A stretch of 64,000 nt of DNA from an uncultured Candidatus Saccharibacteria bacterium (GTDB lineage: Bacteria; Patescibacteriota; Minisyncoccia; Phycocordibacterales; DATGWK01): NCBI GenBank assembly GCA_964356815.1, contig CAYHIR010000004.1, forward strand, positions 842-64,841. The letters are read 5' to 3'. Below the pieces are notes generated by a model. That model did no database searches and was not told the DNA's origin. It was given only the letters and a program-made list of their open reading frames with translations. The position numbers were made by a program, and so were the translations under genes. Positions 9,230 through 28,508 of the stretch are shown here, piece after piece. Numbering within the stretch: the stretch's first letter is position 1; the number at the start of each line of letters is the position of its first letter.

Positions 9230-10033
9230 ATGATAGCTTTCTATAATACATTCATTTTCCAACCCATGTACAACGGGTTGATTTTTTTGATCGACATTTT
9301 GCCTTGGGCCGATGCTGGTGTGGCGATTATCGTTTTTACACTCATTATTAAGCTCATTCTTTTTCCTCTGTCGAAAAAGGCTGTCTACACTCAGCTAAAG
9401 ATGAAGAAAGTTGAGCCACAACTCAGAGCGATAAAGGAAAAATATAGTGGCAAGGATCAGGCGCAAGAACAGGCTAAACAAACGATGGCCTTTTACAAAC
9501 GCGAAGGCATAAGGCCATTTGCGGGAATTTTACTCATATTTATTCAGTTGCCAATACTTTTTGCTTTATACAAAGCGTTTCTCCACCCTGGTTTGCCAAA
9601 TATTGATGTCACCCTCCTCTACTCTTTCGTCATTGCACCAATGTCTGAAAGTATAAACATGCATTTTCTCGGTTTGTTTGATATCGCTGGCAAAAGCATC
9701 GCACTGGCTCTCATCGCCGCAGTCTCTACATATTTTCAAGTGCGTTTTTCTATGCCACCACTACCGCCGAAGAAAGCCACTTCTTTCGATAAAGACGGCA
9801 AGCCTATTCGGCCAAATTTTCAGGAAGATTTTGCTCGCGGTATGAACATTCAGATGAGATATGTTTTTCCGGTGATTGCCTTTTTTATTTCCTGGAGTAT
9901 TTCTGGTGCCATCGCTCTCTATTGGATCACGAGCAATCTTTTCACCATCGCTCAAGAGTTAGTGATTCGAAAAAGTTTTGCGCGTAACGAGAGTCGCGCC
10001 GAAGCTAAGAAAAATTTAAATCCCGCTGTCTAA
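9230..10033 (+). CDS. yidC: YidC/Oxa1-family membrane protein insertase (short form)
   Basis: rpmH-rnpA-yidC synteny. Multiple TM helices. Region KEKYSGKDQAQEQAKQTMAFYKREGIRPFAG is typical of YidC. Confidence 0.85.
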   Translation: MIAFYNTFIFQPMYNGLIFLIDILPWADAGVAIIVFTLIIKLILFPLSKKAVYTQLKMKKVEPQLRAIKEKYSGKDQAQEQAKQTMAFYKREGIRPFAGILLIFIQLPILFALYKAFLHPGLPNIDVTLLYSFVIAPMSESINMHFLGLFDIAGKSIALALIAAVSTYFQVRFSMPPLPPKKATSFDKDGKPIRPNFQEDFARGMNIQMRYVFPVIAFFISWSISGAIALYWITSNLFTIAQELVIRKSFARNESRAEAKKNLNPAV

Positions 10034-11313
10034 AAGTCGAAACCCCAAAGGCTTGAGTCTTTTTTGTTTGTGAAAATGAGAATTTTTTCGCTGGCGTCGA
10101 GCGCGAGATTTGTGGCGTCGATTTCTTCATTTGAGGTTGAGAGTGAGCGGAGGTCGGCAATAACTTGGGCTTCCCCACTGCCGGTGTCGATGCTCCAGAT
10201 GGAATCGTTGAAAGAAATCTGACCGTCGTACCAATTGTCTGGATAGTTGGCGCCTGGAAGAGTTTTTGGCACAGCGCAAATTATTTTTATACTGTCTTTC
10301 ATCCAAATACATTTATCGGCGAGAGTTTTGGTTTGAGTGAGCTCGGTTTTGACGCCAGTTTTTACATCAAAAAGTTTTAAGTTGAGAGAACTGCCGGCGG
10401 CCTCTGAGTATAAAATCTTGGTCATGTTGGGCGCAGGAGCAACAGAAAGGCCAGCAATGCCACCCAATAGCTTTGAGAGTGCGCCAGTGGCTGGGCTCAT
10501 TGTGTATGAATAGCCGAAAGCCGCCGCGCTTGGCTTTGTGGTGATTACTATCGTTGCTTCGCGAGGCCAAGAAGCCGTCCATTCATTTATTGGCGATTCA
10601 AAAATCTTGGCTGGATTTTTGCCGTCTATTAAAGCTGTGTAGCCCACTCCGCTCGCGCCACCGTTTTTAAGCATATAGAAAATCCGATCTTTTGCCGTGA
10701 AGTGGGCAATGTTTGTGATGTTGCCCGGGAGAAATGCGCCGCTCAGCTCTTGGAGGTTTGCTTCGGTGCTAGTCGCGCTTTGCATTGGCGCGACTTTAGC
10801 GTGCATAGTTTGGATGACGCCTGCATCGTTCACGTATCGGAGGATGACACCTGCGCCATTGCCCTGCCACAAAGCCTCTTTGATTTTTGGAATTGTTGTA
10901 TTTGAAATTCTCACAGGGCCGAATGCGCTCGCGCCGCCAGTGCTTCCGCTCATGCTCGCTTGCAAGGCTTCCCTGTTGCTCACTTGGGCTTCGTAAACAT
11001 TGCCCATGGCACTGTCTATGAAACGAACAAATGTTTCGGTGCCTTGAGTGAACAGACCAGTGCCAGCTTGTGGTGCGCTAGAAATTTTCCAGAGGCGAGT
11101 AATTGGTGCTGGTGCGGAAATAATTGGCTCTGTGTCGGCTGGCGTTTCTGTGATTGGTGCGGTGCCGCCAGTGCCGAAAGGAAAGAAATCACCGATGCTA
11201 ATGTTCCCCATGCTCGGGCCGCCATTTTCCTGACGATCGAAAAACCAATATGCTCCGAGGCCGAGTGCCGCGGCGAGAACGATGATTATTAATGTCCAAA
11301 AGATTTTTTTCAT
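10030..11313 (-). CDS. Secreted/membrane-anchored hypothetical protein (T4SS-like cluster member)
   Basis: N-terminal TM/signal MKKIFWTLIIIVLAAALGLGAYWF. Last gene of the co-directional cluster. Confidence 0.45.
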   Translation of the reverse strand: MKKIFWTLIIIVLAAALGLGAYWFFDRQENGGPSMGNISIGDFFPFGTGGTAPITETPADTEPIISAPAPITRLWKISSAPQAGTGLFTQGTETFVRFIDSAMGNVYEAQVSNREALQASMSGSTGGASAFGPVRISNTTIPKIKEALWQGNGAGVILRYVNDAGVIQTMHAKVAPMQSATSTEANLQELSGAFLPGNITNIAHFTAKDRIFYMLKNGGASGVGYTALIDGKNPAKIFESPINEWTASWPREATIVITTKPSAAAFGYSYTMSPATGALSKLLGGIAGLSVAPAPNMTKILYSEAAGSSLNLKLFDVKTGVKTELTQTKTLADKCIWMKDSIKIICAVPKTLPGANYPDNWYDGQISFNDSIWSIDTGSGEAQVIADLRSLSTSNEEIDATNLALDASEKILIFTNKKDSSLWGFDF

Positions 11314-12768
11314 TTAATTATTTGTTGGCGGAGCGGGCGTCGTGCTCGGGTCGAGGGTTGTCGTCAAAATATTTGGATCAATTGTGTTTAAAATGAGCCA
11401 AGAGCCGATCGCGAGGAGCAAACCGATAATAGCCTGATTGATTTTTTCTTTGCCGGCGGATTTGTTGCTGATGACGTCTGTTGTCATGTATTCAAGACCG
11501 CCGATGATGATCATAATCACTGCCAATACTGCCGCCGCGCCGATGAGAAAACGAAACATGGCCATGACGTATGTAGAGAAATCACTAATTTTATAGTCGC
11601 CGGTGGCGGCATTAAACAGGCCTGGCAATGGCACGAGCGGCTCGTACTCAAGCTGGTTTCCTTGAGCCAAGGCTGTTTGAGCGCCTAAAAATTTGTTCAA
11701 ATAACTTTTCTCGGGCAACAAACTCGTCTCACCGCCAGCGTTTTCAGCCGATTTAAATTCAATCGTAAACGGCGCGTCTGCTCCTTGGAGGTAATTGGTT
11801 TTGTGGCGGGCACTCACGCGCACAGAAGCTGAGCCACCGCCCTCGGCTGGTGCTCGGAAGACCACTTCATTGCTCTTCTGCGCGGTCTTTACACTGTTTT
11901 GAGTCCATGAGAAGTCGATATTGTTTGTGTCGTTGTCGTTTGTGGCAGTAAAGAAAAACGGCATGGCGGTGAACGTTGCCTCTGAGCGATCTTCAAAAGA
12001 AAAACTCCGGCCGTTCAAAGCACGCTCCATGCGTAGGCCGTAAAGCGGGCTGTTTTCGTATACCAAAAGCTTCGGGGAGACTTCAGAGACGACGGTTTTG
12101 CCAACGCCGCTGTATTCCCCACCTGTAGAAGACACTTCCACCTCCACTTCTATCGGCTTAGAGAGGACAGAAGGCACGACAGAGAAAGTTTTTCGGCCAT
12201 AGCCAGACGCCGCTTGCACGAGTGTGCCGTTTTGTTTCCATTTATACACGAGATTGGCGGAGTTGACCCTCACACCTTGAGTGGTAAGGAAAAACGGCTC
12301 AGCGACGACAGTCACGCGATCTTGATTGGAATGGAGAGCCTTACCTTCATATAGAGGAGGCACATACGAGCTGGCTTGCCAAAGCATGTCTATTTCCGCA
12401 GGGCGGATAGGAACGGTCTGCGATACTCCATCTATTGAAACGGTGACGTCTGAGACAGTACCCAATGCACCGGTAGTGAAGCTGTAGGTCTTCAAGCCCA
12501 CACCTCTCGCCGCTACTCTTCCACCTTGCGACCAAGAAATGTTCAAACCATTTATGTCGCGGGCGAAATCTTCCACCGTAACGCTAACTTTTTCAAAAGC
12601 TTTTGGATAACGCGGCATTACAGTTACTCGCATCGCCTGGCCTTCGGTGGCGTCTATGAAATCGAATTGGGCCCTCGCTATTTGTGGACTAAATTGCGGC
12701 GCAAAAGTGGTAAAAGCGGCAAAAACTAGAGCAACGCCCACAATGCCCAATAGATTTCTATAAAACAT
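11314..12768 (-). CDS. Secreted protein with C-terminal two-helix, VirB2/TrbC pilin-like, membrane module
   Basis: N-terminal signal peptide. The C-terminus carries two hydrophobic helices (AMFRFLIGAAAVLAVIMIIIGGLEY and AIIGLLLAIGSWLILNTI) separated by a short polar loop. Confidence 0.45.
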   Translation of the reverse strand: MFYRNLLGIVGVALVFAAFTTFAPQFSPQIARAQFDFIDATEGQAMRVTVMPRYPKAFEKVSVTVEDFARDINGLNISWSQGGRVAARGVGLKTYSFTTGALGTVSDVTVSIDGVSQTVPIRPAEIDMLWQASSYVPPLYEGKALHSNQDRVTVVAEPFFLTTQGVRVNSANLVYKWKQNGTLVQAASGYGRKTFSVVPSVLSKPIEVEVEVSSTGGEYSGVGKTVVSEVSPKLLVYENSPLYGLRMERALNGRSFSFEDRSEATFTAMPFFFTATNDNDTNNIDFSWTQNSVKTAQKSNEVVFRAPAEGGGSASVRVSARHKTNYLQGADAPFTIEFKSAENAGGETSLLPEKSYLNKFLGAQTALAQGNQLEYEPLVPLPGLFNAATGDYKISDFSTYVMAMFRFLIGAAAVLAVIMIIIGGLEYMTTDVISNKSAGKEKINQAIIGLLLAIGSWLILNTIDPNILTTTLDPSTTPAPPTNN

Positions 12769-12827
12769 GGTCTAATCTTAACACAGAGAAAGTACGCGGC
12801 TGTGGATGTTTGTTCACTAAGAAAGTG

Positions 12828-13373
12828 TTATTTTATGTATTTTAGTATCCCGGCACCTCTCAATTCCTCCAAAGCCAAATTAAATAACCTAACAATTTTC
12901 TTTTCGTGATGGTGGGCCATAAGTACGAAAATGGTCGCGATTGGAAAGATCTTAAAAAATGGTATGAATTCTATAATTATGACTACGACATATCTTTTCC
13001 AAAGCCAACGAATTATATATTTTTTCCAAAAACGACCTTTCAATTTACCTAAGCACCAAATGAACATGGTAATTGCGAATATAAAGGAAAATATTGTAGT
13101 CAAAATAATGCCGACAATAGAAAGGTCTAGGGAATCTAATACATCTTTTAATATCGCCGCCATTAACATGAGATAAGGGAAGTTTGGTTCTTCTGGTGGA
13201 TCTTCGACGATTAGTTCTTCGTCACCGTCTTCAAAATTCTCACCCTTATCGTTAAATATTTCTCGTACTCTTCCTAATATTCTTTGAAGTTCTTGTGTTT
13301 TTATATTTCCAGGTGCACGATATGCCGGTACAGCGGATGCTACCTCCTCTCCATTTTGTAAGTTTTCATCCAT
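12828..13373 (-). CDS. Hypothetical membrane protein
   Basis: Acidic N-terminus followed by two to three TM helices. Confidence 0.4.
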   Translation of the reverse strand: MDENLQNGEEVASAVPAYRAPGNIKTQELQRILGRVREIFNDKGENFEDGDEELIVEDPPEEPNFPYLMLMAAILKDVLDSLDLSIVGIILTTIFSFIFAITMFIWCLGKLKGRFWKKYIIRWLWKRYVVVIIIEFIPFFKIFPIATIFVLMAHHHEKKIVRLFNLALEELRGAGILKYIK

Positions 13374-13376
13374 AAG

Positions 13377-14138
13377 TTAAAATTCGCCGTCAATTGCTCG
13401 ATTGGTTTTCTTGCCAAGTAAAACATGAGAAATAATGTTGCCAATAATATGGATCATAAACCCGAGTAAAATATAACTGATAAATCTGGCGATCATAAAG
13501 ATGACTATACCGCCATAAGTTTGTGGAACTGTTGTAGAAATAGAGCCGCCGAGCAAAGCCTCTAGTGTCCACAACATACCAAGAGGTATATTTTCAAAGT
13601 GTGGAGTGTTGTGTTCAAAAATATAAACAAGGGTGCCTAATATTATGACAGTAAAAATGAGGGTAAAAAGGTAAATTTGCAAATTAAGTCGGATAATTGC
13701 CATTTTGTCTTCCTCGGAATGTTTTTCTAAATGTTCAAAACGAACAACTTTAGCCAAGCGCATCATTCTTAAAAAGCGGAGTATTCTCAGAGCTCGGAGT
13801 GATTTTAATGGAGTAAGGTTGGAGACGGAAAGTAATGTTGGTGTTATCGATACAAGATCAATAAGGCCAAAGAAGCTAAAGATATAAGAACTTTTTTTTG
13901 AACTCCCTACTATTCGACAAATGTATTCAACAGAAAAAATGAGAGCCGCTACGTATTCTATGATTAAGAAAATTTGATGGTAATTAGAAAACTGAGATAC
14001 GGATTCAAAAATTATCGCTAGTATTGAAATAACAATAACGATCGACAAAAAATCGTTTGTAACAACAAAAAGTCTCGAATTTGTATCGTAGAATGCTTTC
14101 CTACAAAACAGAGAGAAAGAGTGGAATATGTTTTTCAT
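13377..14138 (-). CDS. Voltage-gated ion channel family protein (single 6-TM domain, BacNaV/NaChBac-like)
   Basis: S4 voltage sensor LRALRILRFLRMMRLAKVVR, with Arg at every third position. Pore-like WTLEALLGG resembles the BacNaV TLESW filter. Size is 253 aa. Confidence 0.55.
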   Translation of the reverse strand: MKNIFHSFSLFCRKAFYDTNSRLFVVTNDFLSIVIVISILAIIFESVSQFSNYHQIFLIIEYVAALIFSVEYICRIVGSSKKSSYIFSFFGLIDLVSITPTLLSVSNLTPLKSLRALRILRFLRMMRLAKVVRFEHLEKHSEEDKMAIIRLNLQIYLFTLIFTVIILGTLVYIFEHNTPHFENIPLGMLWTLEALLGGSISTTVPQTYGGIVIFMIARFISYILLGFMIHIIGNIISHVLLGKKTNRAIDGEF

Positions 14139-14143
14139 ACATT

Positions 14144-16060
14144 TTACCCTCCCGTCGCCTCAAGCTCTTCCCTCGCCTTTTGGATGGAGAGGATTTGTGA
14201 TGGGTCGGAGGTGATGATTTGATCTTCAGTGTAAGACGCGATGGTTTTTATGGCCACGTGTTTTAAGCCGGCAAAGAAAATACCTTCGCCGACGCCAGAT
14301 TCAAGCAAAAGATATTTTTCTTCATCAGTTAGATTAAAAACTTGTTGTAGCTTGTCGATAGATGTTGGCGATTGCTTCATGAGCATTTGGATGGAAGAGT
14401 TGGTGATGATCGGCAAACCGTATGGCGATTTCAAAAAGTCGTCAACGTCTTGAGTGATTGTGGCGAGACCGAGGAAATATTTGCGACCACGTTTGGCGAG
14501 TGAGAGTAAGAAAGAAGCAGTGTCTTCAGATTTCATCATCCACCAGGCTTCGTCGATCACGAACAAACGCTTTTTTAATTCTTTGCGAATTGTGTTCCAA
14601 ATATAGTGCGTGACGATGTACATCGCGATCGGTTTGAGTTCGTCTTCCATGTCGCGGAGAGAAAAGACGACAAGTTTTTTATTGATATCAATATTCGTCG
14701 GGCGATTTATAAATCCCGACCAAGTGCCTTTAGTGTATTTTGAGAGCCGTTGTGCAAGTGATTCCCCACCTTCCATACCGGATAGGACGAGTTCGAAGTC
14801 GGACATAAGTGGCGGCTCGATATTTTGAAAATCAGATTCGGCAGTGATGTCTTTCAAGGCGTACGTCTCGGTGATCGCGCGATCCATAATGGCATCTTCT
14901 TCTGGTGTGAGGCCGCCCATCATCAAGCGGAAAAGGCCGATGAGATTGATGATATTTGAACGAAGAACAGACGCCGCAGATTCATCTTTGCCGGGCGGCG
15001 CGAGATCAAATGGGTTGATATGATGCTCAGAATTGAGAGAGATTTTAAAATATCGGCCGCCGACAGTCTCTGCCAAATATTCATATTCCCTTTCTGGATC
15101 GAGCACAATAACTTCTGTGTCGAACATCAGCGTGCGAATGATTTCGAGCTTCGTGGCATAAGATTTTCCGGCGCCAGACTTGGCGAAAGTGATGGAATTG
15201 TAATTTTCCAAAGAGAAACGATCGAAAAGCACGAGGCTGGAATTGTGGCGATTGATGCCGTAAAGCACGCCTTTGTCTGACGTGAGATCGAAAGAAATAA
15301 ATGGAAAGAGGCTCGAGAGCGGCGAGGAATTGAGCTTTGAGTGCACTTCGAGAAGATCTGTAGCGATTGGCATGACGCTTTTGAATGCCTGCTCTTGCTG
15401 GAAAAGCGCCGGCTTCACATAGACAAGTTTCGACTCAAGGATCGATTTCATTTCCGACTCTATTTTATCGAGTTCGGTTTCGTTTTCAGCATAGAGTGTG
15501 ATGTAGAGGCCAACATCGAAAAGTTTTTCTTGCGCTTGCTGAAGATTGTCGCGCAAATTTTCCAAGTCTTGATATGCCGTGTCGAGCATCGGATCGCGCA
15601 CCATGCCCTTGGCTTCCCGCTCATGTATTTGACTCTGCACCTCAGCGACCTTTTTTTGAAATTGGCGAAGAACTTTCACTGTGTCTACTGGATGAACGAA
15701 AATGGAAACGTCAAACATTTTGTCGAGATTGATGATCGGCGCAAACCAACTTTCATTTAAAAAACGCGGATATGAAATAACGAAAAATGTACGGACGAGT
15801 TTGTCGCCAAGATTCAAATCACGCGGACCAATCTTCAACGCACTCGGCGCGATAATATCTTTGAGCTCAAGAGTCTCGGCCTCATACACTTCGCGTGGCA
15901 AAAATGGCGCGACAGGAATCGGCCCGCGCTCTTTCTTTTTGAAAATGTTACTGAAGAATGACATTGTTTTTCGCCGTTTTTTACTAAACCCCCGCCGGCT
16001 CGGCGAGCTGAATCGGTTTCTCCATTTCGCCTGGGTTGAACACTTTGTACAAAAGCTCAA
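14144..16060 (-). CDS. VirB4/TraE-family type IV secretion ATPase, ATPase portion (likely start at Met 15964)
   Basis: Walker A FAKSGAGKSYATK. Walker B VIDEAWWMM. Central motif GDKLVRTFFVISYPRF is typical of the VirB4 linker. Confidence 0.8.
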   Translation of the reverse strand: MSFCTKCSTQAKWRNRFSSPSRRGFSKKRRKTMSFFSNIFKKKERGPIPVAPFLPREVYEAETLELKDIIAPSALKIGPRDLNLGDKLVRTFFVISYPRFLNESWFAPIINLDKMFDVSIFVHPVDTVKVLRQFQKKVAEVQSQIHEREAKGMVRDPMLDTAYQDLENLRDNLQQAQEKLFDVGLYITLYAENETELDKIESEMKSILESKLVYVKPALFQQEQAFKSVMPIATDLLEVHSKLNSSPLSSLFPFISFDLTSDKGVLYGINRHNSSLVLFDRFSLENYNSITFAKSGAGKSYATKLEIIRTLMFDTEVIVLDPEREYEYLAETVGGRYFKISLNSEHHINPFDLAPPGKDESAASVLRSNIINLIGLFRLMMGGLTPEEDAIMDRAITETYALKDITAESDFQNIEPPLMSDFELVLSGMEGGESLAQRLSKYTKGTWSGFINRPTNIDINKKLVVFSLRDMEDELKPIAMYIVTHYIWNTIRKELKKRLFVIDEAWWMMKSEDTASFLLSLAKRGRKYFLGLATITQDVDDFLKSPYGLPIITNSSIQMLMKQSPTSIDKLQQVFNLTDEEKYLLLESGVGEGIFFAGLKHVAIKTIASYTEDQIITSDPSQILSIQKAREELEATGG

Positions 16061-16652
16061 TCACCTCTTCTGTGCCAAGCTCAATGACGCGCACGCCACA
16101 ACGCACCAAGCCTTGCTCCACCACCGAAATTCTTTGCTCAAGCTGAGTGCGATATTCCTCGAAAAGTTCTTCACTGGCTTTGTTTTTGCTTCCACCACCG
16201 CGACCTTTGAAAAGCTGGCCAAAATCAGGCAATTTGCTCCCCGACTTAGATTGGAGCATGGCTGGAGAATACGGGATGACGATGAAAAAGTGCTTCGTCA
16301 TAATGCTCGTGCTCTCAGTGAAATTTTTGATGAAGCCAATGTATTCTTCGACTTGAATTTTCATCAAATCGTTGACCTGCTTTTTGCGCTGTTGCTCAAG
16401 GAGCGCAAGATATGGCCGAATGTCGAGACGACGCGACTGAATGAAAATTTGCACAGAAAAATCGAGCGAATTGAGAAAATCTTGGAAGGAATAGAGAATG
16501 GCTTCGCGTTCGTCGTTGGATTTTAACGAGAAATTGAGAGATGAAGCAATGACAACAGCTCGAAGTGTACCGTCTTTGAGCACCACGATGCCATCGCGGA
16601 CCTCTTTTATCGGCACAAATTCTTGCGTTGCTCCAGCTTTAGTTGTCGCCAT
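15984..16652 (-). CDS. VirB4 N-terminal domain encoded as a separate ORF
   Basis: EFVPIKEVRDGIVVLKDGTLRAVVIASSLNFSLKSNDEREAILYSFQDFLNSLDFSVQIF matches the N-terminal domain of Gram-positive VirB4 homologues. It is in a different frame from the ATPase ORF. Confidence 0.55.
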   Translation of the reverse strand: MATTKAGATQEFVPIKEVRDGIVVLKDGTLRAVVIASSLNFSLKSNDEREAILYSFQDFLNSLDFSVQIFIQSRRLDIRPYLALLEQQRKKQVNDLMKIQVEEYIGFIKNFTESTSIMTKHFFIVIPYSPAMLQSKSGSKLPDFGQLFKGRGGGSKNKASEELFEEYRTQLEQRISVVEQGLVRCGVRVIELGTEEVIELLYKVFNPGEMEKPIQLAEPAGV

Positions 16653-16692
16653 TGTTTTTGTCGCTTTATTATATCAGAACCAGCTACAAGAC

Positions 16693-17406
16693 TTATTTTA
16701 ATACTGACATATAATTTTTGAGTAAAAAGATGACCTCTTTTCGCAGGTGATTTTTGACCCAAGCTTTTTCTTTTTCATTTGGTAAAAGTTCAGCTAATCC
16801 TCGCAATATTTCATTGTCTTTGACCGCTTCCACAACCGGAATGCAATCGGCCATGTATTCTTCGATAGTCTTGCCGGTTCGAGCCTTTATCACCTCGGCA
16901 TTAATGTCCCAGTGATTTGCACCAAAAAACCAAATATCATAAATATCCCGCATAGCTGTTTCGCTTCGGGTGGTCAGAGCCGCGAGCTTGCTGGCAAAGA
17001 GATAATCTTTCTTGCCAGTAAGCATCGAGATACCAAGATATTCTTTCATTTCGTAGTGTTCTTTGATGTCTGGTATGAGATTTCGCATGCTCAATTCAAC
17101 TTTGACATTGTGATCAGTGTCGCCATAGGAGAGCAGGAAAAAGATGGTATTTTGCTTTATATAATTATCTTTGTTCTCTCCATATTTTCGGAGCATTCTG
17201 CCGATTTTTTCGTATACCAATTTTTGTGTGGCTTCATCAGTAGAGAAGAGGTCGAAGTCTAAGTCGACAGAAAATCTAGTTAGGTCATAGAAAAAGTAGG
17301 CACAGGTGCCACCTTTGAATCCAATGAGAGATGAGATAGAAGTATCGGAATAGATATCCCTCAAGATCTGTCCCATGATGAGCTGGTGTTTTTCTTTATT
17401 GAGCAT
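16693..17406 (-). CDS. AbiEii/AbiGii nucleotidyltransferase toxin (type IV TA)
   Basis: Motif GFKGGTCAYFFYDLTRFSVDLDFDL, DUF1814-like. Overlaps the upstream gene by 11 nt. Confidence 0.7.
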   Translation of the reverse strand: MLNKEKHQLIMGQILRDIYSDTSISSLIGFKGGTCAYFFYDLTRFSVDLDFDLFSTDEATQKLVYEKIGRMLRKYGENKDNYIKQNTIFFLLSYGDTDHNVKVELSMRNLIPDIKEHYEMKEYLGISMLTGKKDYLFASKLAALTTRSETAMRDIYDIWFFGANHWDINAEVIKARTGKTIEEYMADCIPVVEAVKDNEILRGLAELLPNEKEKAWVKNHLRKEVIFLLKNYMSVLK

Positions 17407-17983
17407 GTTTTCGGTAGTTAGCCCGGTACTTTTTTAGGCGCTTTATTAATTGCTTATTATCGTAAATTTTTACAAGCTCGAAGCAGATCTCCCAGTTGAT
17501 AGATCGTAGGTTGTCAAAATAAAATTTAGGAGATAAATAAATAGTGTCGAGGAATGCTCGCTCTGGTGTGGCGATACTGTAATTCTTTTCATTTTTTATA
17601 CCAATTGCATTGTAGAGCACACCGTCTTTTAGTTTTCTGAAGGTAATCGTTTTATCGCCAACCTTTTTTGTTGTAGGATAGGGACCAGCTACGAAGATCG
17701 CAGTCTGATGTTGGAAAATAATTCCGGCTTCTCGGAGGACCGTTTCAAAGCTGATGTATGAAGGGGTATAAATACTTGTTGCGAGTTCTTTGACATCATA
17801 TTCCTTGTTCTTGGCAAAAACGCCACGAGTCAGACGGATCAGTGATCCTTGTTTGGCGTAGTATTTGATCTTTGAGAAAAGATTGACGGTATTGGTTTCC
17901 TCCCAAATTAAAGCTATATCCTTTACGGTCAAGATTGTCTTGGGGGATTCGTATAATTTGGCAATAAGGTTGTCTGCAGCCAT
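17396..17983 (-). CDS. AbiEi-family antitoxin (wHTH)
   Basis: Paired with the AbiEii gene. Motif SLIRLTRGVF is typical of AbiEi N-terminal domains. Confidence 0.6.
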   Translation of the reverse strand: MAADNLIAKLYESPKTILTVKDIALIWEETNTVNLFSKIKYYAKQGSLIRLTRGVFAKNKEYDVKELATSIYTPSYISFETVLREAGIIFQHQTAIFVAGPYPTTKKVGDKTITFRKLKDGVLYNAIGIKNEKNYSIATPERAFLDTIYLSPKFYFDNLRSINWEICFELVKIYDNKQLIKRLKKYRANYRKHAQ

Positions 17984-18076
17984 ATATTAGTATGTTTAAT
18001 GGAAAGGTGATATCTCCACCCCTCCATTGTATATTATGATGAAAATCATGTAAATATGGCTAATTTTTGATCGCTA

Positions 18077-18592
18077 TCATTCCCACCCCTCAAGCTTCGG
18101 TTTTACAAACTTGTCGCTGTTTATGTCGCTAAATTTTTTGAAGTCGTCGTCTTCATCTCGCGTCACTGGATTCAAACTTTCTTTAACGTCGAGTGTCCAT
18201 GAAAGATCGCGGAGCTTGCTCTCGGAAAGTTTTGGCACAAACACCGCATTTTTTTTCGACTCTTCCCTTTCAGCGAGCGGTTTCGGCTCATGTTTCCATA
18301 TATAGAGCTTGTCTTTCACCGCATAGTGTAGAAAAGATTCAACAGCTCGAATGAATGGCCGATTGTTTATCTTGTAAAATGCGAGCGCCGTACCAAAAAC
18401 GCCTAGCAAAATAATGAGTGGCACAGCGATGAGAAATGGCAAAAAAGTGTACGCAATGATACACGCACCAGCCGCACCAGCCAGGTATATAAATTGTTTG
18501 AAGGTCAACGGTCCGATGACCTTATCCTCGACATCAGTGAATTGTGGAACTTGGAATCGCATTTTGTTTTGCCGCGCTCCGCGGCGATGCAC
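18077..18592 (-). CDS. PrgI-family / VirB3-like small membrane protein
   Basis: FQVPQFTDVEDKVIGPLTFKQFIYLAGAAGACIIAY, then a second TM helix. This matches PrgI (the VirB3 analogue), which is normally encoded just before VirB4. Confidence 0.6.
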   Translation of the reverse strand: MHRRGARQNKMRFQVPQFTDVEDKVIGPLTFKQFIYLAGAAGACIIAYTFLPFLIAVPLIILLGVFGTALAFYKINNRPFIRAVESFLHYAVKDKLYIWKHEPKPLAEREESKKNAVFVPKLSESKLRDLSWTLDVKESLNPVTRDEDDDFKKFSDINSDKFVKPKLEGWE

Positions 18593-18599
18593 GTTTAAA

Positions 18600-19364
18600 T
18601 TATTTTATCGGCTCGCGATACGGATCGCCGCCATTGTAGGTATTTTTTCTTTTCTCATCCACCTCCGTCTTCACCTGGCTCTCATCACGCTCCGTGCGCA
18701 CGAGTTTACTCAACTTCTGATCCACTATCGAACTAAATTTTGGCGCGAGTGGTTGTGGTACAGGAACGCTGGTTGTTGGCTTAAACGAAGCAGGTGCCGG
18801 TGTCATGACAGGTGCGACTGCTACAGAAGGCGTGACGGGCGCGACCGACTTAGAAAGTGACGGTGTAGAGAAAGCGGTTTTTATCGGCATTTTATTGCCA
18901 CCTTCTTTTGGCATGAGAGTTTGGCTGTGTAGATGCGGTTCGCGAATCATTTCATGTGATGGGAGGAGGTGGTTGGATGCAAGCATTTTTTCGCTAAGAT
19001 CATCAGGCCTAGATTTAACAGGTCTAGATTCTGATATTGCGCGTAATTCCTCCTCCATTTCCTTTAGAAGGCCCATCACCGGATCAAATATTTCTTTGTT
19101 TGTGTCAGAAGATATTTTAATTGCCTGGTCGTAAGACACTCCGACTTTCTCCACTGCGTTCGCTCTAAACTTGCTCAATGGTTCTAATCCAAAAAGCACA
19201 AAAAATGTTTCATTTTCCAAGGAATATTTTTGGTCTGTTGTCAAATTATATTTTGTTCCAATGGAGATTATTTTATCCTTGGTCAATGGATTTATAATCG
19301 TATCCTGGACATCAGAAGGCAGAACTTCAAAGTTTTCTTTTAATGTTTTTAATGTTTCGTCCAT
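18600..19364 (-). CDS. Hypothetical protein with Pro/Ala/Val-rich C-terminus (cluster member)
   Basis: No recognisable domain. Co-directional within the cluster. Confidence 0.4.
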   Translation of the reverse strand: MDETLKTLKENFEVLPSDVQDTIINPLTKDKIISIGTKYNLTTDQKYSLENETFFVLFGLEPLSKFRANAVEKVGVSYDQAIKISSDTNKEIFDPVMGLLKEMEEELRAISESRPVKSRPDDLSEKMLASNHLLPSHEMIREPHLHSQTLMPKEGGNKMPIKTAFSTPSLSKSVAPVTPSVAVAPVMTPAPASFKPTTSVPVPQPLAPKFSSIVDQKLSKLVRTERDESQVKTEVDEKRKNTYNGGDPYREPIK

Positions 19365-19371
19365 ATTTTTT

Positions 19372-21768
19372 TTATTCTTTATCGCCTTCGTCGTCTGGTT
19401 TTTTGGCTGGTTTTTCTACCCCGTCAGTCTTCCCTTTCTTTACAGCTTCAAAAAGTTTTTCCCACTGCTGATCCTCTTTGCCTTTTGAAAACTCACTTCT
19501 AATTTTCTGTGCTTCGTTGTAGCGCGTATTGCTAAACATAGGCCGGTTTTCTCCTAAAGTTTTTGGATTTTTGTATAATCTGAATGCACTTCTCCACGGT
19601 CTTTCCACAGCCTTTGATGCATATTCGAACGCCCTCAACTTAGATGGACTCTCTGTTTTGTTCTCTCTCACATATCTCTCTTCTTCGTTCTTCATAAATT
19701 CCTTTATCTTTTCCTTATCTCCCGCAAACCTAGCCTCAGCTTCTCTTTGAGACACACTTTTTGCACCAGAGTTTCCAAAGCGTTTTTTAGCTTCGTCTTC
19801 GGATATGCCTTTTAGCTCGTCAACTTTTCCTTGAGCAGACTTTCTGTCTTCTATAACGACCTTAAGTTCCTCTCCTATCTTTCCCTCGATCTTGATTCTC
19901 TGGTCTCTAATTTTTCCTAATGGAATTGAATCAATCTGTAGTTTATTAGAAAGTGTATTAATTCCAGCGGCTCTATCTGAAATATTTTTCTGAATTTGTG
20001 CTTTAGCGGTGTCTGGGATTCTGGCGTCTTTTAGTCTTTCCATATCAGCCAACTGCTCCTTCTTCATGTCTTCAAGTTTTTTCTCTGAAGGAGCTAGGCT
20101 ATCTTTAAGAGTTTTCTCTTGGGCGGCGATTAATTCTAGTGGAGTTTTGTAGCTCTCTCGGATAGCTCGTTCCCTTTCTTTCGTCCTCTCGACAGCTTGT
20201 TGTGCCTGATCCACTTTCACCTTGCTTGGACCAAGATCTTTCGCTCTATCAAGGGCAAGTTTTTCGCGTTCCTCCACAAATTTATCGTAACCATCTTTTC
20301 CTCCAGCTTTGCCTAAGCCACCGATAGTGCCAGCGAGTTCGCCGCCAATCTTTGTTGCTCTAACATCAAAACTAGATTTTGCGATATCTTTAGATTTGCC
20401 TCTTACAACGCCAGCCAAAGCTCCTCTCCAACCACCACTTGCCTCAGCTTTTTTAAGTGCTTCAGAGTCGGCGATATTTCTTCCTGTCCATCCGACAGTT
20501 CTTCTTCCTGCGTATCCTAGAGCACCAGCCGTTGCTCCACCAAAGTATCCCTGTGCACCGACCCTCAGCTTCTTGCCGAACTTCATTAGCCCGCCAGCTC
20601 CATGCGCACCGGCTTCCTTTGCAATGATAAGCGCGGCGACAGTGAAAGCGATGATTATGAAGAAGTTCATGAAAATTGCACCGGCGCTTGCACCAGCTCC
20701 GGTCGCTCCGTTTCCAAGACTGGCGACCATTGATGCAATGTTTTGATTTGGATCAGGAGTTGCGACAATCACATCAAGCAGCTGCAGCACTATCCAAAGA
20801 AGAGCGATACAGACTGGCGCAAAGATTACTTGATCCCAAAGAGCACTGAACCAACGGCCAGAATATTTGTCATTCGGCAAAGCCATCGCTGCAAATGCCA
20901 GCGGTGAGAGTATGAAAAGAAAAATAATAATTACAAATCGAGATATGAAAAGAATCGACATGGCGAAAAATATAAAGGCTGCCGTGCCCATGAAGATCAT
21001 GCCCAAGAATCCTACCTCGAGCATTTTTATCCAGTCTCCACCGGTCGCTGTTGCTATTACATTGCCTGCCGTGCCTGTATTGTACCAACTAGTAAAACCA
21101 AATTTCTGCATGTAAGCATTTGCAATGTTGGCACCCTCGCCACTGACACTGGCGTTTATTTGATTGTAAAAGACGACTGTGAGAGTGTTCGAACCGTCAA
21201 TGATTAGCTTCGTGAAAAACAAACTGAAGTTTAAAAGAAGAGCGACGATTATCACTCGAGTCAACATTTTTTTCATGTCGACGTTGCCCAACCCAAGAAT
21301 TGTGCCGATGGCTACATATAGAAGAATAAATATGAACGCCATGTTGGCGAGATCGCGGAATGTTGTCCATGTCTTATTTATAATGTTGTATAGGTCTCCG
21401 TTGGCGCCAACATGAGCAGACATATTTACTATCGTATAAGCCATTACATTATTTAGAAGGACGCCCGATATACCAAGTATCAAACTGCCAATAGTCAGAA
21501 GTCCTACGGCGATGTTGTTGACCAAAAGCTTCATACACTGGATCGGTGAAGTAATTCCGCAAACGAAAGGATTCGGCGGGCCAACTGGCAATACAGCTGG
21601 GGTGTTATAAGTCGCCTCAAATTCATCTGCCGGTATTTCTGTGATGGTTTGTGCACGGGTCACATTTGCTGGCGCTGCTGTGACAAAAATTCCTAGAAAA
21701 ATTGTTGAAATAAAAACAACTGATAAAGTTATCATCCAAATCTTTTTCTTTTTCAAAAAATTAAACAT
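19372..21768 (-). CDS. VirB6/TrbL-like polytopic membrane protein with long charged C-terminal tail
   Basis: Signal/TM start, six or more TM helices in the middle, a Gly-rich segment, then a ~300 aa K/E-rich tail. Confidence 0.5.
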   Translation of the reverse strand: MFNFLKKKKIWMITLSVVFISTIFLGIFVTAAPANVTRAQTITEIPADEFEATYNTPAVLPVGPPNPFVCGITSPIQCMKLLVNNIAVGLLTIGSLILGISGVLLNNVMAYTIVNMSAHVGANGDLYNIINKTWTTFRDLANMAFIFILLYVAIGTILGLGNVDMKKMLTRVIIVALLLNFSLFFTKLIIDGSNTLTVVFYNQINASVSGEGANIANAYMQKFGFTSWYNTGTAGNVIATATGGDWIKMLEVGFLGMIFMGTAAFIFFAMSILFISRFVIIIFLFILSPLAFAAMALPNDKYSGRWFSALWDQVIFAPVCIALLWIVLQLLDVIVATPDPNQNIASMVASLGNGATGAGASAGAIFMNFFIIIAFTVAALIIAKEAGAHGAGGLMKFGKKLRVGAQGYFGGATAGALGYAGRRTVGWTGRNIADSEALKKAEASGGWRGALAGVVRGKSKDIAKSSFDVRATKIGGELAGTIGGLGKAGGKDGYDKFVEEREKLALDRAKDLGPSKVKVDQAQQAVERTKERERAIRESYKTPLELIAAQEKTLKDSLAPSEKKLEDMKKEQLADMERLKDARIPDTAKAQIQKNISDRAAGINTLSNKLQIDSIPLGKIRDQRIKIEGKIGEELKVVIEDRKSAQGKVDELKGISEDEAKKRFGNSGAKSVSQREAEARFAGDKEKIKEFMKNEEERYVRENKTESPSKLRAFEYASKAVERPWRSAFRLYKNPKTLGENRPMFSNTRYNEAQKIRSEFSKGKEDQQWEKLFEAVKKGKTDGVEKPAKKPDDEGDKE

Positions 21769-21770
21769 TT

Positions 21771-23012
21771 TTATATCGTTATCCCCTGCACCGTTACAGT
21801 ATCAGAGCAAGTGAATGTCTTTGTTCGACCGTTGGCAGTAACTCTGACCTGAGCATTTTTTTCGCCAACAGATGGGTAACCCACAACCAGAGAGTTGGCA
21901 TTACCGAAAGATGTTGTTGTGCTTGTCGCCAGCTCTATTGGTGTACTGCCGCTCCAAACAAAAGTAGTTCTGTTGGATCGGCTACCGTTTACATAAGTTG
22001 TCCAAGTGACCGGCTCATTTATTTCGGCAATGCCAGTATCAGCAAAACAGTAGCCTGTGAAATTATTTTGGTCGCTTCCACTGCCGCTACCACTTTGCGC
22101 ACCAGAGAAACCGCCAATCACCTGTCGTACAAAATATCCCGCCAAAGCACCAACAACTTCATTAAACTCATCAGCTATTTCTAGACGATCTAGATTTGTG
22201 CCTAAGACATTTTCGAGTTGTGTTTCCACGACAGCTCCTGGCGTTTGGATCTGACCATTTTCATCTTCCCAAGAGAAGAAGCCATTACCCCAATCGAGCT
22301 TTAAGAGTTCTATGTTTTGAGAACCGGCGATGCGGACGCTCAACTCAGTATTTGCTTTTGCATACGCGCCGTATGGATTGTTGTTGGCATTTTGCGTCAT
22401 GCTAAACCAGCCGTCCCAGCCGCCCTGATTAAAATCACCTTCGGTAAATTTGGCAAAATTTTCGGCGTTGGCTATTACATCAGATAAAGAACAGTTGATG
22501 CGAAAATCTGAAGAGTGACTGAAATTGAGTGCGCCTCTGATTTGTAATTGAAAAGGATCACACATAAAGCCCAGCTCTGTGCCGGCGATAAATTCTCCTG
22601 CTACCTGATCAGCTACTCCACTGAGAAATTGTTCAGGATTAGTGACGAAAGCTGGTCCGCCTTCGAAGCCGCGATTAATCCAATTGACTATAGAGTTTGT
22701 AACGTTGTCTATTAGAATGTTGCCTGCTTGCCAAGCAAAAGCGTCGAGCCCGAGGCCAAAAATTCCCTGCTCTTTTAAGTTGTTTGGAACATCGTTTGTT
22801 GGTACAAGTAGAGCTGCGCCGATCCCCTGAGCTTGAGCGTGCGCTTTATTTACTGTTTGCGGATAAAAAATTCCAGAAAAAAGTGACGCCGATGTGGCGG
22901 TGATTGTTATGGCGGAAAAAATCAGAATGGCTAAAAGTGCGACCGACAGACGAGCGGACGATTTTTTTGTGTATGTTAAAAAGTCCATTTTTTGGCTCTT
23001 TGTCTCAATCAT
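21771..23012 (-). CDS. Secreted hypothetical protein (N-terminal TM anchor)
   Basis: N-terminal hydrophobic segment LSVALLAILIFSAITITA. No domain recognised. Confidence 0.45.
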   Translation of the reverse strand: MIETKSQKMDFLTYTKKSSARLSVALLAILIFSAITITATSASLFSGIFYPQTVNKAHAQAQGIGAALLVPTNDVPNNLKEQGIFGLGLDAFAWQAGNILIDNVTNSIVNWINRGFEGGPAFVTNPEQFLSGVADQVAGEFIAGTELGFMCDPFQLQIRGALNFSHSSDFRINCSLSDVIANAENFAKFTEGDFNQGGWDGWFSMTQNANNNPYGAYAKANTELSVRIAGSQNIELLKLDWGNGFFSWEDENGQIQTPGAVVETQLENVLGTNLDRLEIADEFNEVVGALAGYFVRQVIGGFSGAQSGSGSGSDQNNFTGYCFADTGIAEINEPVTWTTYVNGSRSNRTTFVWSGSTPIELATSTTTSFGNANSLVVGYPSVGEKNAQVRVTANGRTKTFTCSDTVTVQGITI

Positions 23013-24001
23013 ATCGCATTTGTAAGGGCGTAACCATATTCTGACTGTGTAAAGGTTATGTTTTGTGTGGCGAAAATATTTTTGAGTTCATCAATTGCAG
23101 AATTTAGAGCGGCGGTGTCTTCTCCGTATTTTTTTATGCTCGCCAAACCAACGATCGGATCAGAAAACATTTTTTTAAATCCGGAAACGTCGCCTTTAAT
23201 TGCCTCAAAACTATTTACAACTTCCAAATGAGCGAGAGCGGCGGCGACCGGCACTCCAGTCAATCTCAAACCCAGCACAATCCCCTCATATCGAGCGATA
23301 GACGCGTCTAGTCTTTGTAAATCAGAGGCCGATTTATCGTTGAGTGCCACATTTAGTATCTCGTACTCATTATTATTGGCCGTTATTTGATTGTTTAGAA
23401 GGACAAGACCGACGGAATTGCCGTATTTCTTCATGTTCTCCTCGTTTTCTTCGTCATTTTTGCCTTCCGGAACGAGTTTGAGGTCGGAAATTGAGTATTT
23501 TTTGCTCTGACCGACGGAAATATTGGCACTCGCGAGACTTTCTATGAGCTCTTCTTGGTTTACGGTGCCTGTGCGCTTAGCTTCTATATACTTAGCAAAG
23601 AATTCACGGCTAAATTTCTCGGTTTCTGAGAGGTTTTCTTCTATTTCTGCGCCCGCACCTGCGCCACCGCTCACGCCAGATGAGCCGCCCGCCGAGCCAT
23701 TCACGCCACCGCTCGCCTCTAGGCCGACAAGTGTTTCCTCCCAGTTTTTTATGCCGTCACCGTCGTCGTCTAAGTCGGAAATTTTCTTCAAAAACTCTGA
23801 ATCGACGGCATTTGATGGGTTGTTGCTGTCTTTTGTGTCGAAAATGCCCGATTTTTGGCCATTTTCAGCACTTTTTGAGCCGTTTGCACCATTGGCGCTA
23901 CTTGTGGTGGAATATTGAGCGGCAAAAACCACTGTGCCGAGCGCTAAAAGGCAGGCAATAAAAACGAAAGCGACCCTTTTGCTTGGTCGGAGAGAAGTCA
24001 T
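23009..24001 (-). CDS. Secreted hypothetical protein with Gly/Ser-rich linker (first gene of cluster)
   Basis: Signal peptide VAFVFIACLLALGTVVFA. Low-complexity GGSSGVSGGAGAGA stretch. Confidence 0.4.
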   Translation of the reverse strand: MTSLRPSKRVAFVFIACLLALGTVVFAAQYSTTSSANGANGSKSAENGQKSGIFDTKDSNNPSNAVDSEFLKKISDLDDDGDGIKNWEETLVGLEASGGVNGSAGGSSGVSGGAGAGAEIEENLSETEKFSREFFAKYIEAKRTGTVNQEELIESLASANISVGQSKKYSISDLKLVPEGKNDEENEENMKKYGNSVGLVLLNNQITANNNEYEILNVALNDKSASDLQRLDASIARYEGIVLGLRLTGVPVAAALAHLEVVNSFEAIKGDVSGFKKMFSDPIVGLASIKKYGEDTAALNSAIDELKNIFATQNITFTQSEYGYALTNAI

Positions 24002-24575: not shown

Positions 24576-25202
24576 TTAGGAGCTTAGTTTGTTGAGCTCC
24601 CTGAGCTCTCTATTCCAACAGACAAACTTTTCCAAATCTCTTATATCAAAAATAATAAGTCCCGTAGGCCGTAGGCTATTTAATTCTTTGGATATACGTC
24701 CAGCTGTTGCAAATAGTGCAACTCTTTTATTAGCACTAAGGAGTTGTTGTATGGGGTTTGCAAAATCACTATCACCACTCCACAGTACAAAAGTGTCGGC
24801 ATTGTTGTGCTCAAGATCAAGAAGCATATTTACTCCAATTTCAACATCAAAATTGCATTTTTTATCTCGTAGTTTTCGTATACCTTGTTGATTTAGGTTT
24901 TGCAAATGCTGATTGAGACCTTCTATTTGATCCAATGTCATGGTTTTGAGTAGTGGAGTGCGAATAAAATCTGTCAAAAGATCCGATGATTGCATTGACT
25001 GCAAACTCGTTGCATCAATTGATAATTCCATTATTTTTACTGGTTTAGTATGTAGCTCGTACCCTTGATCTTCAAGATCTTTTATATTTCTTTCCGACTC
25101 TTTGTCTCCCACCAATGTTCCTTGATAGAAGTGAATCTTTTTAATTAGCTCTGTTTGTTCATCAGCAATCATTTTTATTTTGTCTGTTTTTGGACTAAAC
25201 AT
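24576..25202 (-). CDS. NYN-domain (LabA/PIN-like) protein
   Basis: KKCNFDVEIGVNMLLDLEHNNADTFVLWSGDSDFANPIQQLLSANKRVALF is the NYN catalytic-core signature. Confidence 0.6.
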   Translation of the reverse strand: MFSPKTDKIKMIADEQTELIKKIHFYQGTLVGDKESERNIKDLEDQGYELHTKPVKIMELSIDATSLQSMQSSDLLTDFIRTPLLKTMTLDQIEGLNQHLQNLNQQGIRKLRDKKCNFDVEIGVNMLLDLEHNNADTFVLWSGDSDFANPIQQLLSANKRVALFATAGRISKELNSLRPTGLIIFDIRDLEKFVCWNRELRELNKLSS

Positions 25203-25271: not shown

Positions 25272-25514
25272 ATGTTAAACAACAAATTATTCTTTAATTT
25301 GCCCGTCGTCATTACTAAGCAAAATAAGCATTTTGTGGCGTATACTCCTGCACTCGATATTTCCACTTCTGGTAAATCTGAAAAGGATGTCAAAAAAAGG
25401 TTTGTTGAGCTGGTGAATATTTTTTTAGAGGAAATTATTGAGAAAAAAACTGTCGACGGCGTGCTTTATGAGTTGGGTTGGGAAAAAGAATATCTAAAAG
25501 CTATCTCGAGGTAA
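25272..25514 (+). CDS. HicB-like (UPF0150) small protein, putative antitoxin
   Basis: The start was moved to an internal Met. HFVAYTPALDISTSGKSEKDVKKRFVELVNIFLEE resembles the HicB fold consensus. No HicA partner is seen. Confidence 0.3.
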   Translation: MLNNKLFFNLPVVITKQNKHFVAYTPALDISTSGKSEKDVKKRFVELVNIFLEEIIEKKTVDGVLYELGWEKEYLKAISR

Positions 25515-28361: not shown

Positions 28362-28480
28362 TAAAATTTCGGTGAAAATTTTGGCGAAATAGTCTTCAAA
28401 CTATATCACGCGGCACTGGTCGCCAAAAACGCCATATTTTGCAACATATTTTGGCTATCCACAAGGTCTGGCGGCCCTCA

Positions 28481-28508
28481 TTGACCGCTTTTGGGGTGGG
28501 GGTATAAT
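28481..28508 (+). promoter_or_regulatory. Sigma70-like promoter TTGACC-16 nt-TATAAT
   Basis: Near-consensus -35 and -10 hexamers with a 16 nt spacer, about 180 nt upstream of the LysM/M23 gene. Confidence 0.5.

Follow-up and report, generated by a model that had tools for sequence, protein, structure and literature searches.

A chromosomal type IV secretion module with a separately encoded VirB4 N-terminal domain in a Patescibacteria genome of the Paceibacteria type

The window analysed here, a stretch of 64,000 nucleotides, comes from a Patescibacteria chromosome that is of the Paceibacteria/Parcubacteria type. Positions 10030 to 24001, between yidC and ksgA, are filled by 13 minus-strand open reading frames (ORFs) with intergenic gaps of -11 to +93 bp. 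Ten of these genes form a module for a type IV secretion system (T4SS), and the remaining three encode AbiEi, AbiEii, and a channel of the Ion_trans family. The module is very probably the Paceibacteria version of the Patescibacteria T4SS, derived from monoderm machinery (MPF-FATA, TrsC/D/E-like) and serving transfer between an epibiont and its host. It contains the components that characterise a T4SS of any class, namely a VirB4 ATPase with Walker A and B motifs, a VirB3-like partner, and a VirB6-like subunit. Six lineage-specific proteins are conserved alongside, specifically the cytoplasmic g10, the membrane protein g3, and the extracellular or anchored g1, g2N (the secreted part of g2), g12, and g13. 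The initial annotation had described a 13-gene co-directional cluster encoding a VirB3/VirB4/VirB6 apparatus with a pilin, perhaps for cell-cell interaction or DNA uptake. The latter reading is supported by profile matches, by synteny, and by the lack of a relaxase, a type IV coupling protein (T4CP), and VirB11 among the ORFs scanned. As to the cluster, the common minus-strand orientation and the tight packing stand, but AbiEi, AbiEii, and the Ion_trans gene are unrelated insertions. The ten core ORFs, all of which are intact, are the following.

10030-11313, minus strand: g1, anchored extracellular protein, 427 amino acids (aa), last gene of the module
11314-12768, minus strand: g2, fusion of a three-repeat secreted part and a VirB2-like T4SS pilin module, 484 aa
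12828-13373, minus strand: g3, small polytopic membrane protein, divergent, low-GC copy
14144-15964, minus strand: g5, VirB4 ATPase of the monoderm (CD1110/TrsE) type, 606 aa from ATG
15984-16652, minus strand: g6, TrsD-like, separately encoded VirB4 N-terminal domain, 222 aa
18077-18562, minus strand: g9, PrgI/VirB3-like membrane protein, 161 aa from ATG
18600-19364, minus strand: g10, cytoplasmic accessory protein, 254 aa
19372-21768, minus strand: g11, extended VirB6/TrbL-like polytopic membrane protein, 798 aa, with the membrane part at aa 1-440 and a tail at aa 441-798
21771-23012, minus strand: g12, anchored protein with a helical central domain and a C-terminal beta-sandwich, 413 aa
23009-24001, minus strand: g13, membrane-anchored or secreted protein, 330 aa, first gene of the conserved module

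For comparison, 80 loci from species-level genomes were retrieved by VirB4 similarity, 44 of them with full flanks. The order uvrD-ksgA-g13-g12-g11-(g10)-prgI-g6-virB4-(g3)-g2N-(pilin)-g1-yidC-dnaA-dnaN, with yidC on the opposite strand, is shared by all 44 full-length loci, and the conservation of gene order in relatives anticipated by the initial annotation is thereby confirmed. The members in parentheses were missed by tblastn and recovered by position. The two closest relatives examined (L091 and L092, with 89% VirB4 identity) have the same layout. The core comprises eleven genes in the relatives and ten ORFs in the window, because two genes are fused in the latter. Across the 44 loci, median identity amounts to 81% for VirB4, 63% for g6, and 52% for PrgI, compared with 59% for DnaA, 52% for UvrD, 51% for DnaN, and 47% for KsgA; part of the excess of VirB4 over DnaA is due to the choice of loci by VirB4 similarity. 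The median falls to 25-35% for g1, g2N, g10, g11, g12, and g13, with g1 found in 44 of 44 loci at 32%. The pattern is that of a constrained motor with fast-evolving surface parts, and the contrast is large despite the VirB4-based selection. The genes on either side of the module, listed below, constitute the chromosomal setting typical of a Patescibacteria T4SS.

5702-6802: dnaN
7081-8520: dnaA
9230-10033, plus strand: yidC, convergent with g1 and overlapping it by 4 bp
25494-26360: ksgA
26394-28361: UvrD/PcrA helicase gene

The motor of the system is encoded by two genes, g5 and g6. The product of g5 matches P-loop_TraG in Pfam with 90 bits, in addition to AAA_10, and reaches 374.5 bits on the NCBIfam model NF045971 (VirB4-like conjugal transfer ATPase, CD1110 family; cut-off 325), as expected from its earlier assignment as VirB4. 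It also aligns with the solved VirB4 ATPase domain 4ag5 of the Protein Data Bank (PDB) at 3e-38. A Walker A motif SGAGKS and a Walker B motif VIDEAW are legible in its sequence. More than 8000 homologues of g5 occur in a collection of 5.8 billion proteins. The 120 matches listed are about 605 aa long and 81-92% identical, and those among them that are named by source belong to Patescibacteria, Paceibacterota, or Parcubacteria. The VirB4 length and the source names of the nearest homologues thus point to the Patescibacteria group.

The product of g6 covers the part of VirB4 that is missing from g5. On NF045975, an 894-position VirB4 model from Mycoplasma integrative and conjugative elements (ICEs), g6 aa 6-126 corresponds to positions 101-233 (1.8e-10) and g5 to positions 289-892. 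On the 752-position CD1110 model NF045971, g6 occupies positions 2-117 (1e-5) and g5 positions 182-734. Furthermore, g6 matches the TrsD/TraD model NF041427 at 3.7e-5 with 23.6 bits, the model cut-off being 200 bits, and is assigned to the precomputed Pfam family PF26593 TraC-like. Alignments of g5 with single VirB4 proteins agree with this division. It aligns with aa 225-772 of PrgJ only (2e-43), the first ~224 aa of PrgJ being without counterpart in g5, and aligns end to end with TrsE of pSK41 (4e-28), where a separate TrsD gene likewise lies upstream. On Bacillales plasmids, homologues of g6 with about 30% identity stand between prgI and a DUF87-type virB4. Comparison of the g6 family with hhalign gave nothing against the single PrgJ sequence and E 0.023 against TrsD, and the question was decided by the NCBIfam profiles instead. 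The gene closes with TAG TAA 19 nt ahead of the VirB4 ATG, so the split is not a frameshift, and g6 is a gene of its own that always adjoins virB4 in 44 of 44 loci. Neither g6 nor g5 contains a hydrophobic transmembrane (TM) segment. Judged from these alignments, g6 and g5 correspond to consecutive parts of a single-chain VirB4, and the split represents the ancestral TrsD/TrsE arrangement. The "split VirB4" of the initial annotation, with an N-domain ORF and an ATPase ORF, is therefore upheld by products of 222 and 606 aa that cover consecutive parts of the models and by the conservation of the split.

PrgI is the second component with a direct profile match. The product of g9 reaches 45.5 bits on Pfam PrgI (gathering score 27), in line with its first description as PrgI/VirB3-like, and has one hydrophobic stretch at aa 35-53. 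The prgI gene was found in 44 of 44 loci and adjoins g6 and virB4 in the relatives.

The VirB6-like subunit is assigned less directly. No direct Pfam match was obtained for g11 itself, but three homologues with 32-40% identity exceed the TrbL/VirB6 gathering score with near full-length coverage of the profile. An AlphaFold2 model of aa 1-440, built from 121 sequences, is confident (pLDDT 81, pTM 0.74). In a Foldseek search of 350,542 PDB chains, its best matches were the TrwI/VirB6 chains of R388 (E 3.7e-3, TM score 0.48), whose identity was verified, and DotA was also among the best. The tail at aa 441-798 is rich in lysine and glutamate, with K, E, R, and D accounting for 41% of its residues. 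When PDB sequences were compared with the g11 family profile, the coiled-coil tail dominated the result, which was uninformative; P0247 found nothing in the PDB, and tblastn of the TM domain against plasmids gave no match. In hhalign, weak matches were obtained with a 907-aa protein of Geobacillus (E 1e-4) and with the TM core of PrgH (E 1.3e-3). By transitivity through its homologues and by a fold match of moderate strength, g11 is thus a likely VirB6-like channel subunit, and the earlier description as a VirB6/TrbL-like polytopic protein with a K/E-rich tail agrees with these results.

The pilin of the system is found at the C-terminus of g2. This protein consists of three homologous repeats of about 100 aa (aa ~40-340) and a two-helix pilin module at aa ~400-465. 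The repeat profiles match one another with hhalign probabilities of 93-96%. BiPBP_C and Ig_3 matches in a pooled family scan, ascribed to homologues of g2N, suggest Ig-like domains, so that the repeats are probably Ig-like beta-sandwiches. The C-terminus scores 22-25.6 bits on the Pfam family T4SS_pilin (gathering score 26.6), and the orthologue in L001 passes at 29.7. Orthology of the pilin is supported by phmmer matches of 1e-29 to 3e-30. A gene for the pilin alone stands between g2N and g1 in 50 of 52 loci. In the relatives, g2N is a secreted protein of about 335 aa, and the pilin, of 200-430 aa, carries a signal peptide of its own and in most cases a C-terminal extension rich in Cys. In the window fusion, only the short remnant SYLNKFLGAQTALAQ is left of the pilin signal peptide, and the pilin has no C-terminal extension. 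The identical 484-aa product occurs on an independent assembly from another run (L081), hence the fusion is not an assembly error. Its predicted topology, an external N-terminal part and then two TM helices, is compatible with pilin insertion. Of the VirB2/TrbC-like two-helix C-terminus noted initially, the pilin module is confirmed, and its position in one protein with the secreted part proves to be a local fusion of two genes.

The absence of other T4SS functions was assessed by a domain scan that covered most ORFs of at least 150 aa in the window. Among the ORFs scanned, no relaxase, VirD4/TcpA (T4CP), VirB11, VirB8, or lytic-transglycosylase domain was found. The pairing of relaxase and T4CP that marks conjugative elements is therefore missing within the 64-kb window. 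Mobile boundaries and variable presence, which also mark such elements, are not seen either. The site of the module is constant across all 44 loci, and no integrase, tRNA, or repeat boundary is adjacent to it; the nearest tRNA is 30 kb off, and the sole integrase-family gene is Xer-like (50137-51141). The initial statements that relaxase, VirD4, and VirB11 are missing, and that the cluster is not a canonical conjugation module, hold for the ORFs scanned. The accompanying statement on lytic transglycosylases holds as far as this domain is concerned, but a wall-cutting enzyme is encoded nearby.

28689-29681, plus strand: LysM + Peptidase_M23 cell-wall hydrolase, divergent from uvrD, 4.7 kb from the cluster

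In at least seven relatives, a homologue of this hydrolase is found at the corresponding position. It could be a VirB1 substitute for the T4SS or an ordinary division hydrolase, and because two housekeeping genes intervene it is not assignable to the T4SS.

Systems of this kind have been described before. In the Saccharibacterium Southlakia epibionticum, Wang et al. (2023) showed by transposon sequencing (Tn-seq) that a T4SS with pilins, lacking relaxase and coupling protein, is essential for epibiotic growth (PMC10633639). The survey of Quinonero-Coronel et al. (2025) reported VirB4, TrsD, PrgI/VirB3, VirB6, and VirB2-like pilins near virB4 in Patescibacteria, where the system is widespread; relaxases are lacking, and the loci lie near dnaA, dnaN, ksgA, and rnpA, especially in Paceibacteria (PMC12102498). 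The import of DNA or other macromolecules from hosts was proposed in the same study. A 2025 review ranks the Patescibacteria T4SSs as a new branch of the superfamily (PMC12857230). The initial description of the cluster as a poorly characterised apparatus is thus superseded, since the kind was already known, including its position at dnaA and its lack of a relaxase (PMC10633639, PMC12102498, PMC12857230).

The window locus shares with the Paceibacteria T4SS of the survey the TrsD, PrgI/VirB3, VirB6, and VirB2-like pilin genes near virB4, the lack of a relaxase, and the dnaA/dnaN/ksgA/rnpA location. It differs in its AbiE and ion-channel insertions and in the fusion of g2N with the pilin. Furthermore, the survey leaves other neighbours unassigned, whereas g1, g2N, g3, g10, g12, and g13 are conserved in position here (PMC12102498). 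The T4SS of Southlakia epibionticum ML1 (SEML1_0006-0019), compared by its published description and not by sequence, likewise is chromosomal and has monoderm-type subunits and pilins without a recognisable relaxase or coupling protein. It belongs to Saccharimonadia and has six divergent pilins, with peptidase and lysozyme genes beside virB4, whereas the pilin module of the window is single and fused, and no hydrolase gene lies within the T4SS module. The locus thus represents a further instance of a published kind of T4SS. Its local peculiarities, namely the inserted genes, the g2N-pilin fusion, the defined set of accessory proteins, and the DPYRE(P) tail of g10, are modest additions.

More distant relatives are found among conjugation systems. 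The Trs genes of pSK41/pGO1 (TrsC-TrsD-TrsE) and the modules of Bacillales plasmids also combine a VirB3-like protein, an N-domain protein of ~200-320 aa, and a VirB4 of ~610-670 aa. Unlike the window module, these systems are conjugative or plasmid-borne and are accompanied by relaxase, T4CP, CHAP/M23 hydrolase, and topoisomerase genes. The Prg/Pcf system of pCF10 (PrgH-PrgI-PrgJ) shares the PrgI family and a VirB4 of PrgJ's NCBIfam family, and PrgH weakly matches the TM core of g11. In contrast to the window, where the N-terminal domain is encoded separately as g6, PrgJ is one chain of 796 aa, and pCF10 additionally has the adhesins PrgA/B/C, PrgK, PrgL, a T4CP, and a relaxase. The Mycoplasma ICE trio Mbov_0395 (pilin-like), Mbov_0396 (TM protein), and Mbov_0397 (VirB4) supplies the best or only NCBIfam matches, with 0.0085 for the g2 C-terminus, 5.4e-5 for g11, 1.8e-10 for g6, and 1e-78 for g5. 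The Mbov genes, however, reside in mobile ICEs, and all of these matches are far below the model cut-offs. R388 TrwI (VirB6) and Legionella DotA belong to diderm systems, show 11-18% identity, and in TrwI the 360-aa charged tail of g11 is lacking. TrsB of pSK41 (L090, 25115-25432) is annotated as a CagC (VirB2-like) family protein. In view of this annotation and of the Mbov_0395-0397 matches, the pilin-like gene may be older in monoderm T4SSs than the idea of a co-option from diderms implies, the pilin match being weak (0.0085).

The T4SS of Patescibacteria is thought to serve life on host cells. A model for the window module can be extrapolated from the established roles of VirB4, VirB3, VirB6, and VirB2 in other T4SSs. 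Together with its TrsD-like domain, VirB4 would dock on PrgI and VirB6 at the cytoplasmic membrane and power the assembly of a pilin tube that crosses the wall. The rapidly evolving proteins outside the cell, g12 among them, may form the wall-spanning part or the tip that touches the host cell. The assembled machine would move macromolecules between epibiont and host rather than conjugative DNA, a reading suggested by the lack of a relaxase or coupling protein nearby.

Four of the accessory proteins are predicted to be exposed at the cell surface. The products of g1, g2, g12, and g13 each have one N-terminal hydrophobic segment, as predicted in a segment analysis, and the several secreted proteins of the initial annotation can be recognised in them. 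In g13, the hydrophobic segment spans aa 10-28, and an acidic Ca-binding-type repeat, DDDGDGIKNWEE, is present. No Pfam or NCBIfam match was found for the window protein. In a pooled scan of four families, ten sequences matched Pfam TSP3_bac (thrombospondin-type-3 Ca-binding repeats), and these were attributed to g13 homologues because of the repeat motif. Homologues of g13 were detected by tblastn at the same position in 28 of the 44 full loci, and g12 was found in 43. The g12 homologues, of which the family alignment contains a thin set of 28, have a common central domain and variable C-termini consisting of Bact_surface_Ig-like, F5_F8_type_C (discoidin), fn3, or InlB B-repeat domains. This domain pattern fits a host-binding surface protein. 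The AlphaFold2 model of g12 places helices at aa 88-298 and strands at aa 320-409, but at a confidence (pLDDT 57, pTM 0.30) too low to assign a fold. A VirB5-like tip protein was considered as a candidate identity of g12; Foldseek with this model gave weak Ig-like matches at the C-terminus and none to VirB5/TraC. One g12 homologue matches DUF4141 at 1e-5. For g1, weak DPPIV_N and DUF5050 matches in three of 26 family members suggest that the protein may be a beta-propeller. Profiles of the g12 and g1 families found no match among PDB sequences.

The other two accessory proteins are g10 and g3. The product of g10 has no TM segment. A variable linker rich in Pro connects its conserved N-terminal domain of ~110 aa to a near-invariant DPYREP peptide at the C-terminus. 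In 59 of 62 loci, an ORF resembling g10 stands between prgI and the gene of the VirB6-like protein, and 51 of these 59 positional orthologues have a DP[YF]RE ending. The family comprises 1514 cluster representatives (E<=1e-3), and the motif stands in the last 12 residues of 113 among the best 150. In the window, DPYRE(P) sits 3-5 residues ahead of the g10 stop and occurs once in all six frames. A literature search on the DPYRE motif found nothing relevant. The peptide may be a docking motif. The g3 family sits directly downstream of virB4 in 52 of 56 loci, and its alignment shows D and E-IP...LP-WT motifs. The window copy scores 41 bits (E 1e-14) on a family hidden Markov model built without it and is closest to just a few family members. 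A relation of the family to PrgF, PrgG, or TrsB was considered and rejected, as the comparison showed none.

It has been considered that these six proteins (g1, g2N, g3, g10, g12, and g13) replace the functions of VirB8, VirB1, and adhesins as an undescribed wall-spanning and host-contact structure. The DPYRE(P) peptide of g10 would then serve as a docking tag to the split VirB4 or to the tail of VirB6 and take over the substrate recruitment of the absent coupling protein. This proposal is tentative and rather doubtful in its full extent.

Several observations weigh against assigning the locus to an epibiont-host T4SS. The pilin module of g2 remains just below the Pfam gathering score, and the VirB6 assignment of g11 comes from homologues and a moderate fold match instead of a direct profile match. 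The module has no recognised VirB8-like or VirB1-like member, and genes for a relaxase or coupling protein could lie elsewhere in the genome, beyond the 64-kb window. The roles of the six accessory proteins are inferred from position, topology, and conservation only. As the loci were picked by VirB4 similarity, VirB4 identity is inflated relative to the other genes. In this particular genome, the AbiE and channel insertions and the pilin fusion could impair the operon. Finally, experimental data on this kind of T4SS come solely from Southlakia epibionticum, a member of Saccharimonadia.

The same machine might alternatively be a dedicated DNA-import (competence-like) system, like Helicobacter ComB or Sulfolobales Ced, feeding an organism that is unable to make nucleotides. 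This is improbable. The missing relaxase and T4CP make DNA export by conjugation unlikely, import from hosts has been proposed as mentioned above (PMC12102498), and the window VirB4 weakly matches the CedB DNA-import ATPase model (1.2e-7). However, the CedB match is confined to the generic ATPase core (aa 427-510) with 30.7 bits against a cut-off of 700, and no ComEC/ComF-type or DNA-binding gene is present in the module. In Southlakia, comEC is dispensable, and the T4SS is essential yet unneeded for transformation (PMC10633639, PMC12857230). The sequence itself carries no sign of substrate direction.

Conjugation is disfavoured by the fixed chromosomal position of the module together with the lack of DNA-processing genes, and the same constancy bears on the idea that the cluster is the remnant of a decayed ICE or plasmid which lies near dnaA by chance. 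Homology of its components to conjugation genes of Bacillota plasmids and Mycoplasma ICEs would fit such an origin, as would the mobile-type AbiE pair and the low-GC genes inside the cluster. Yet all 44 species-level genomes share one and the same chromosomal context, VirB4 identity exceeds that of DnaA (81% vs 59%, with the selection effect noted above), no boundary of a mobile element is adjacent, and none of the ten core ORFs is disrupted. Relatives lack the inserted genes, which hence arrived later, and decay is very unlikely. There is next to no chance that the cluster consists of unrelated neighbours that look like an operon only through the compactness of the genome. Patescibacterial genomes are indeed gene-dense, three of the 13 genes are in fact unrelated, and promoter and terminator scans were uninformative. 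Nevertheless, the order and orientation of the core are conserved while housekeeping proteins are only ~50% identical, and four core genes come from families that cooperate in known T4SSs; synteny thus refutes this explanation.

The three genes that do not belong to the secretion system are the following.

13377-14138, minus strand: g4, voltage-gated-type ion channel, Pfam Ion_trans 72.9 bits, GC 0.343
16693-17406, minus strand: AbiEii, PADLOC 2e-67, Pfam AbiEii 60 bits
17396-17983, minus strand: AbiEi, PADLOC 3e-55

The genes of the AbiEi antitoxin and the AbiEii nucleotidyltransferase toxin overlap by 11 bp and constitute an AbiE system (type IV toxin-antitoxin/abortive infection). The pair lies between prgI and the TrsD-like gene and has a GC of 0.39. 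Neither the Ion_trans gene nor AbiEi, AbiEii, or a nearby NYN gene gave a tblastn match in the 80 related loci, and L091 and L092 lack all four. These genes are recent insertions. The AbiE pair and the ion channel do not belong to the secretion system and came after the module, not with it, as relatives lack them. GC amounts to 0.352 for g3 and 0.343 for the channel gene, compared with 0.43-0.50 for the core genes. This suggests, although it is no proof, that g3 and the Ion_trans gene arrived together, and they may have replaced a resident g3. In L092, a different small gene (23S_rRNA_IVP) is located one junction away from the AbiE site, between g10 and prgI. Given this gene and the AbiE pair, the stretch around prgI seems to tolerate insertions.

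Scans for promoters and terminators in the cluster gave counts at chance level, and a promoter-like site at 18054-18026, ahead of AbiEi, is not significant. A search for DnaA boxes returned 19 matches against 12.3 expected, which is not significant either. At and around 28362-28688, gene orientation flips from the minus strand on the left to the plus strand on the right, and cumulative GC skew is lowest at ~27.9 kb. A replication origin near 28.5 kb, ~20 kb from dnaA instead of beside it, is therefore possible.

Further genes were observed in the rest of the window. Two of them encode NYN-domain (LabA-like nuclease) proteins, at 24576-25202 and 48715-49263, both on the minus strand. The former lies between the T4SS module and ksgA, has a GC of 0.356, and is the NYN gene without counterpart in the 80 related loci. 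Just beyond dnaN, the minus-strand gene at 4436-5428 encodes a RhuM + Fic/DOC protein with a match (2e-109) to PDC-S23, a candidate defence family of PADLOC. The plus-strand run at 29781-44993 contains eight paralogous Peripla_BP_6 (Liv-type) solute-binding genes in a row as well as genes for two permeases and two ATPases of an ABC transporter of the branched-chain-amino-acid type. A methyltransferase gene, a TrmB-type regulator gene on the minus strand, and a PemK/MazF toxin gene (40342-40809) are interspersed.

The Patescibacteria T4SS is among the few machines that host-dependent ultrasmall bacteria retain despite genome reduction. For work on this family, the locus provides a defined ten-gene Paceibacteria core with conserved order, and its insertions mark where the operon tolerates foreign genes. 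It also offers direct evidence that the TrsD-like protein and VirB4 together represent one split VirB4. Finally, it contributes a conserved cytoplasmic partner, g10, whose C-terminal DPYRE(P) peptide is a candidate docking motif.

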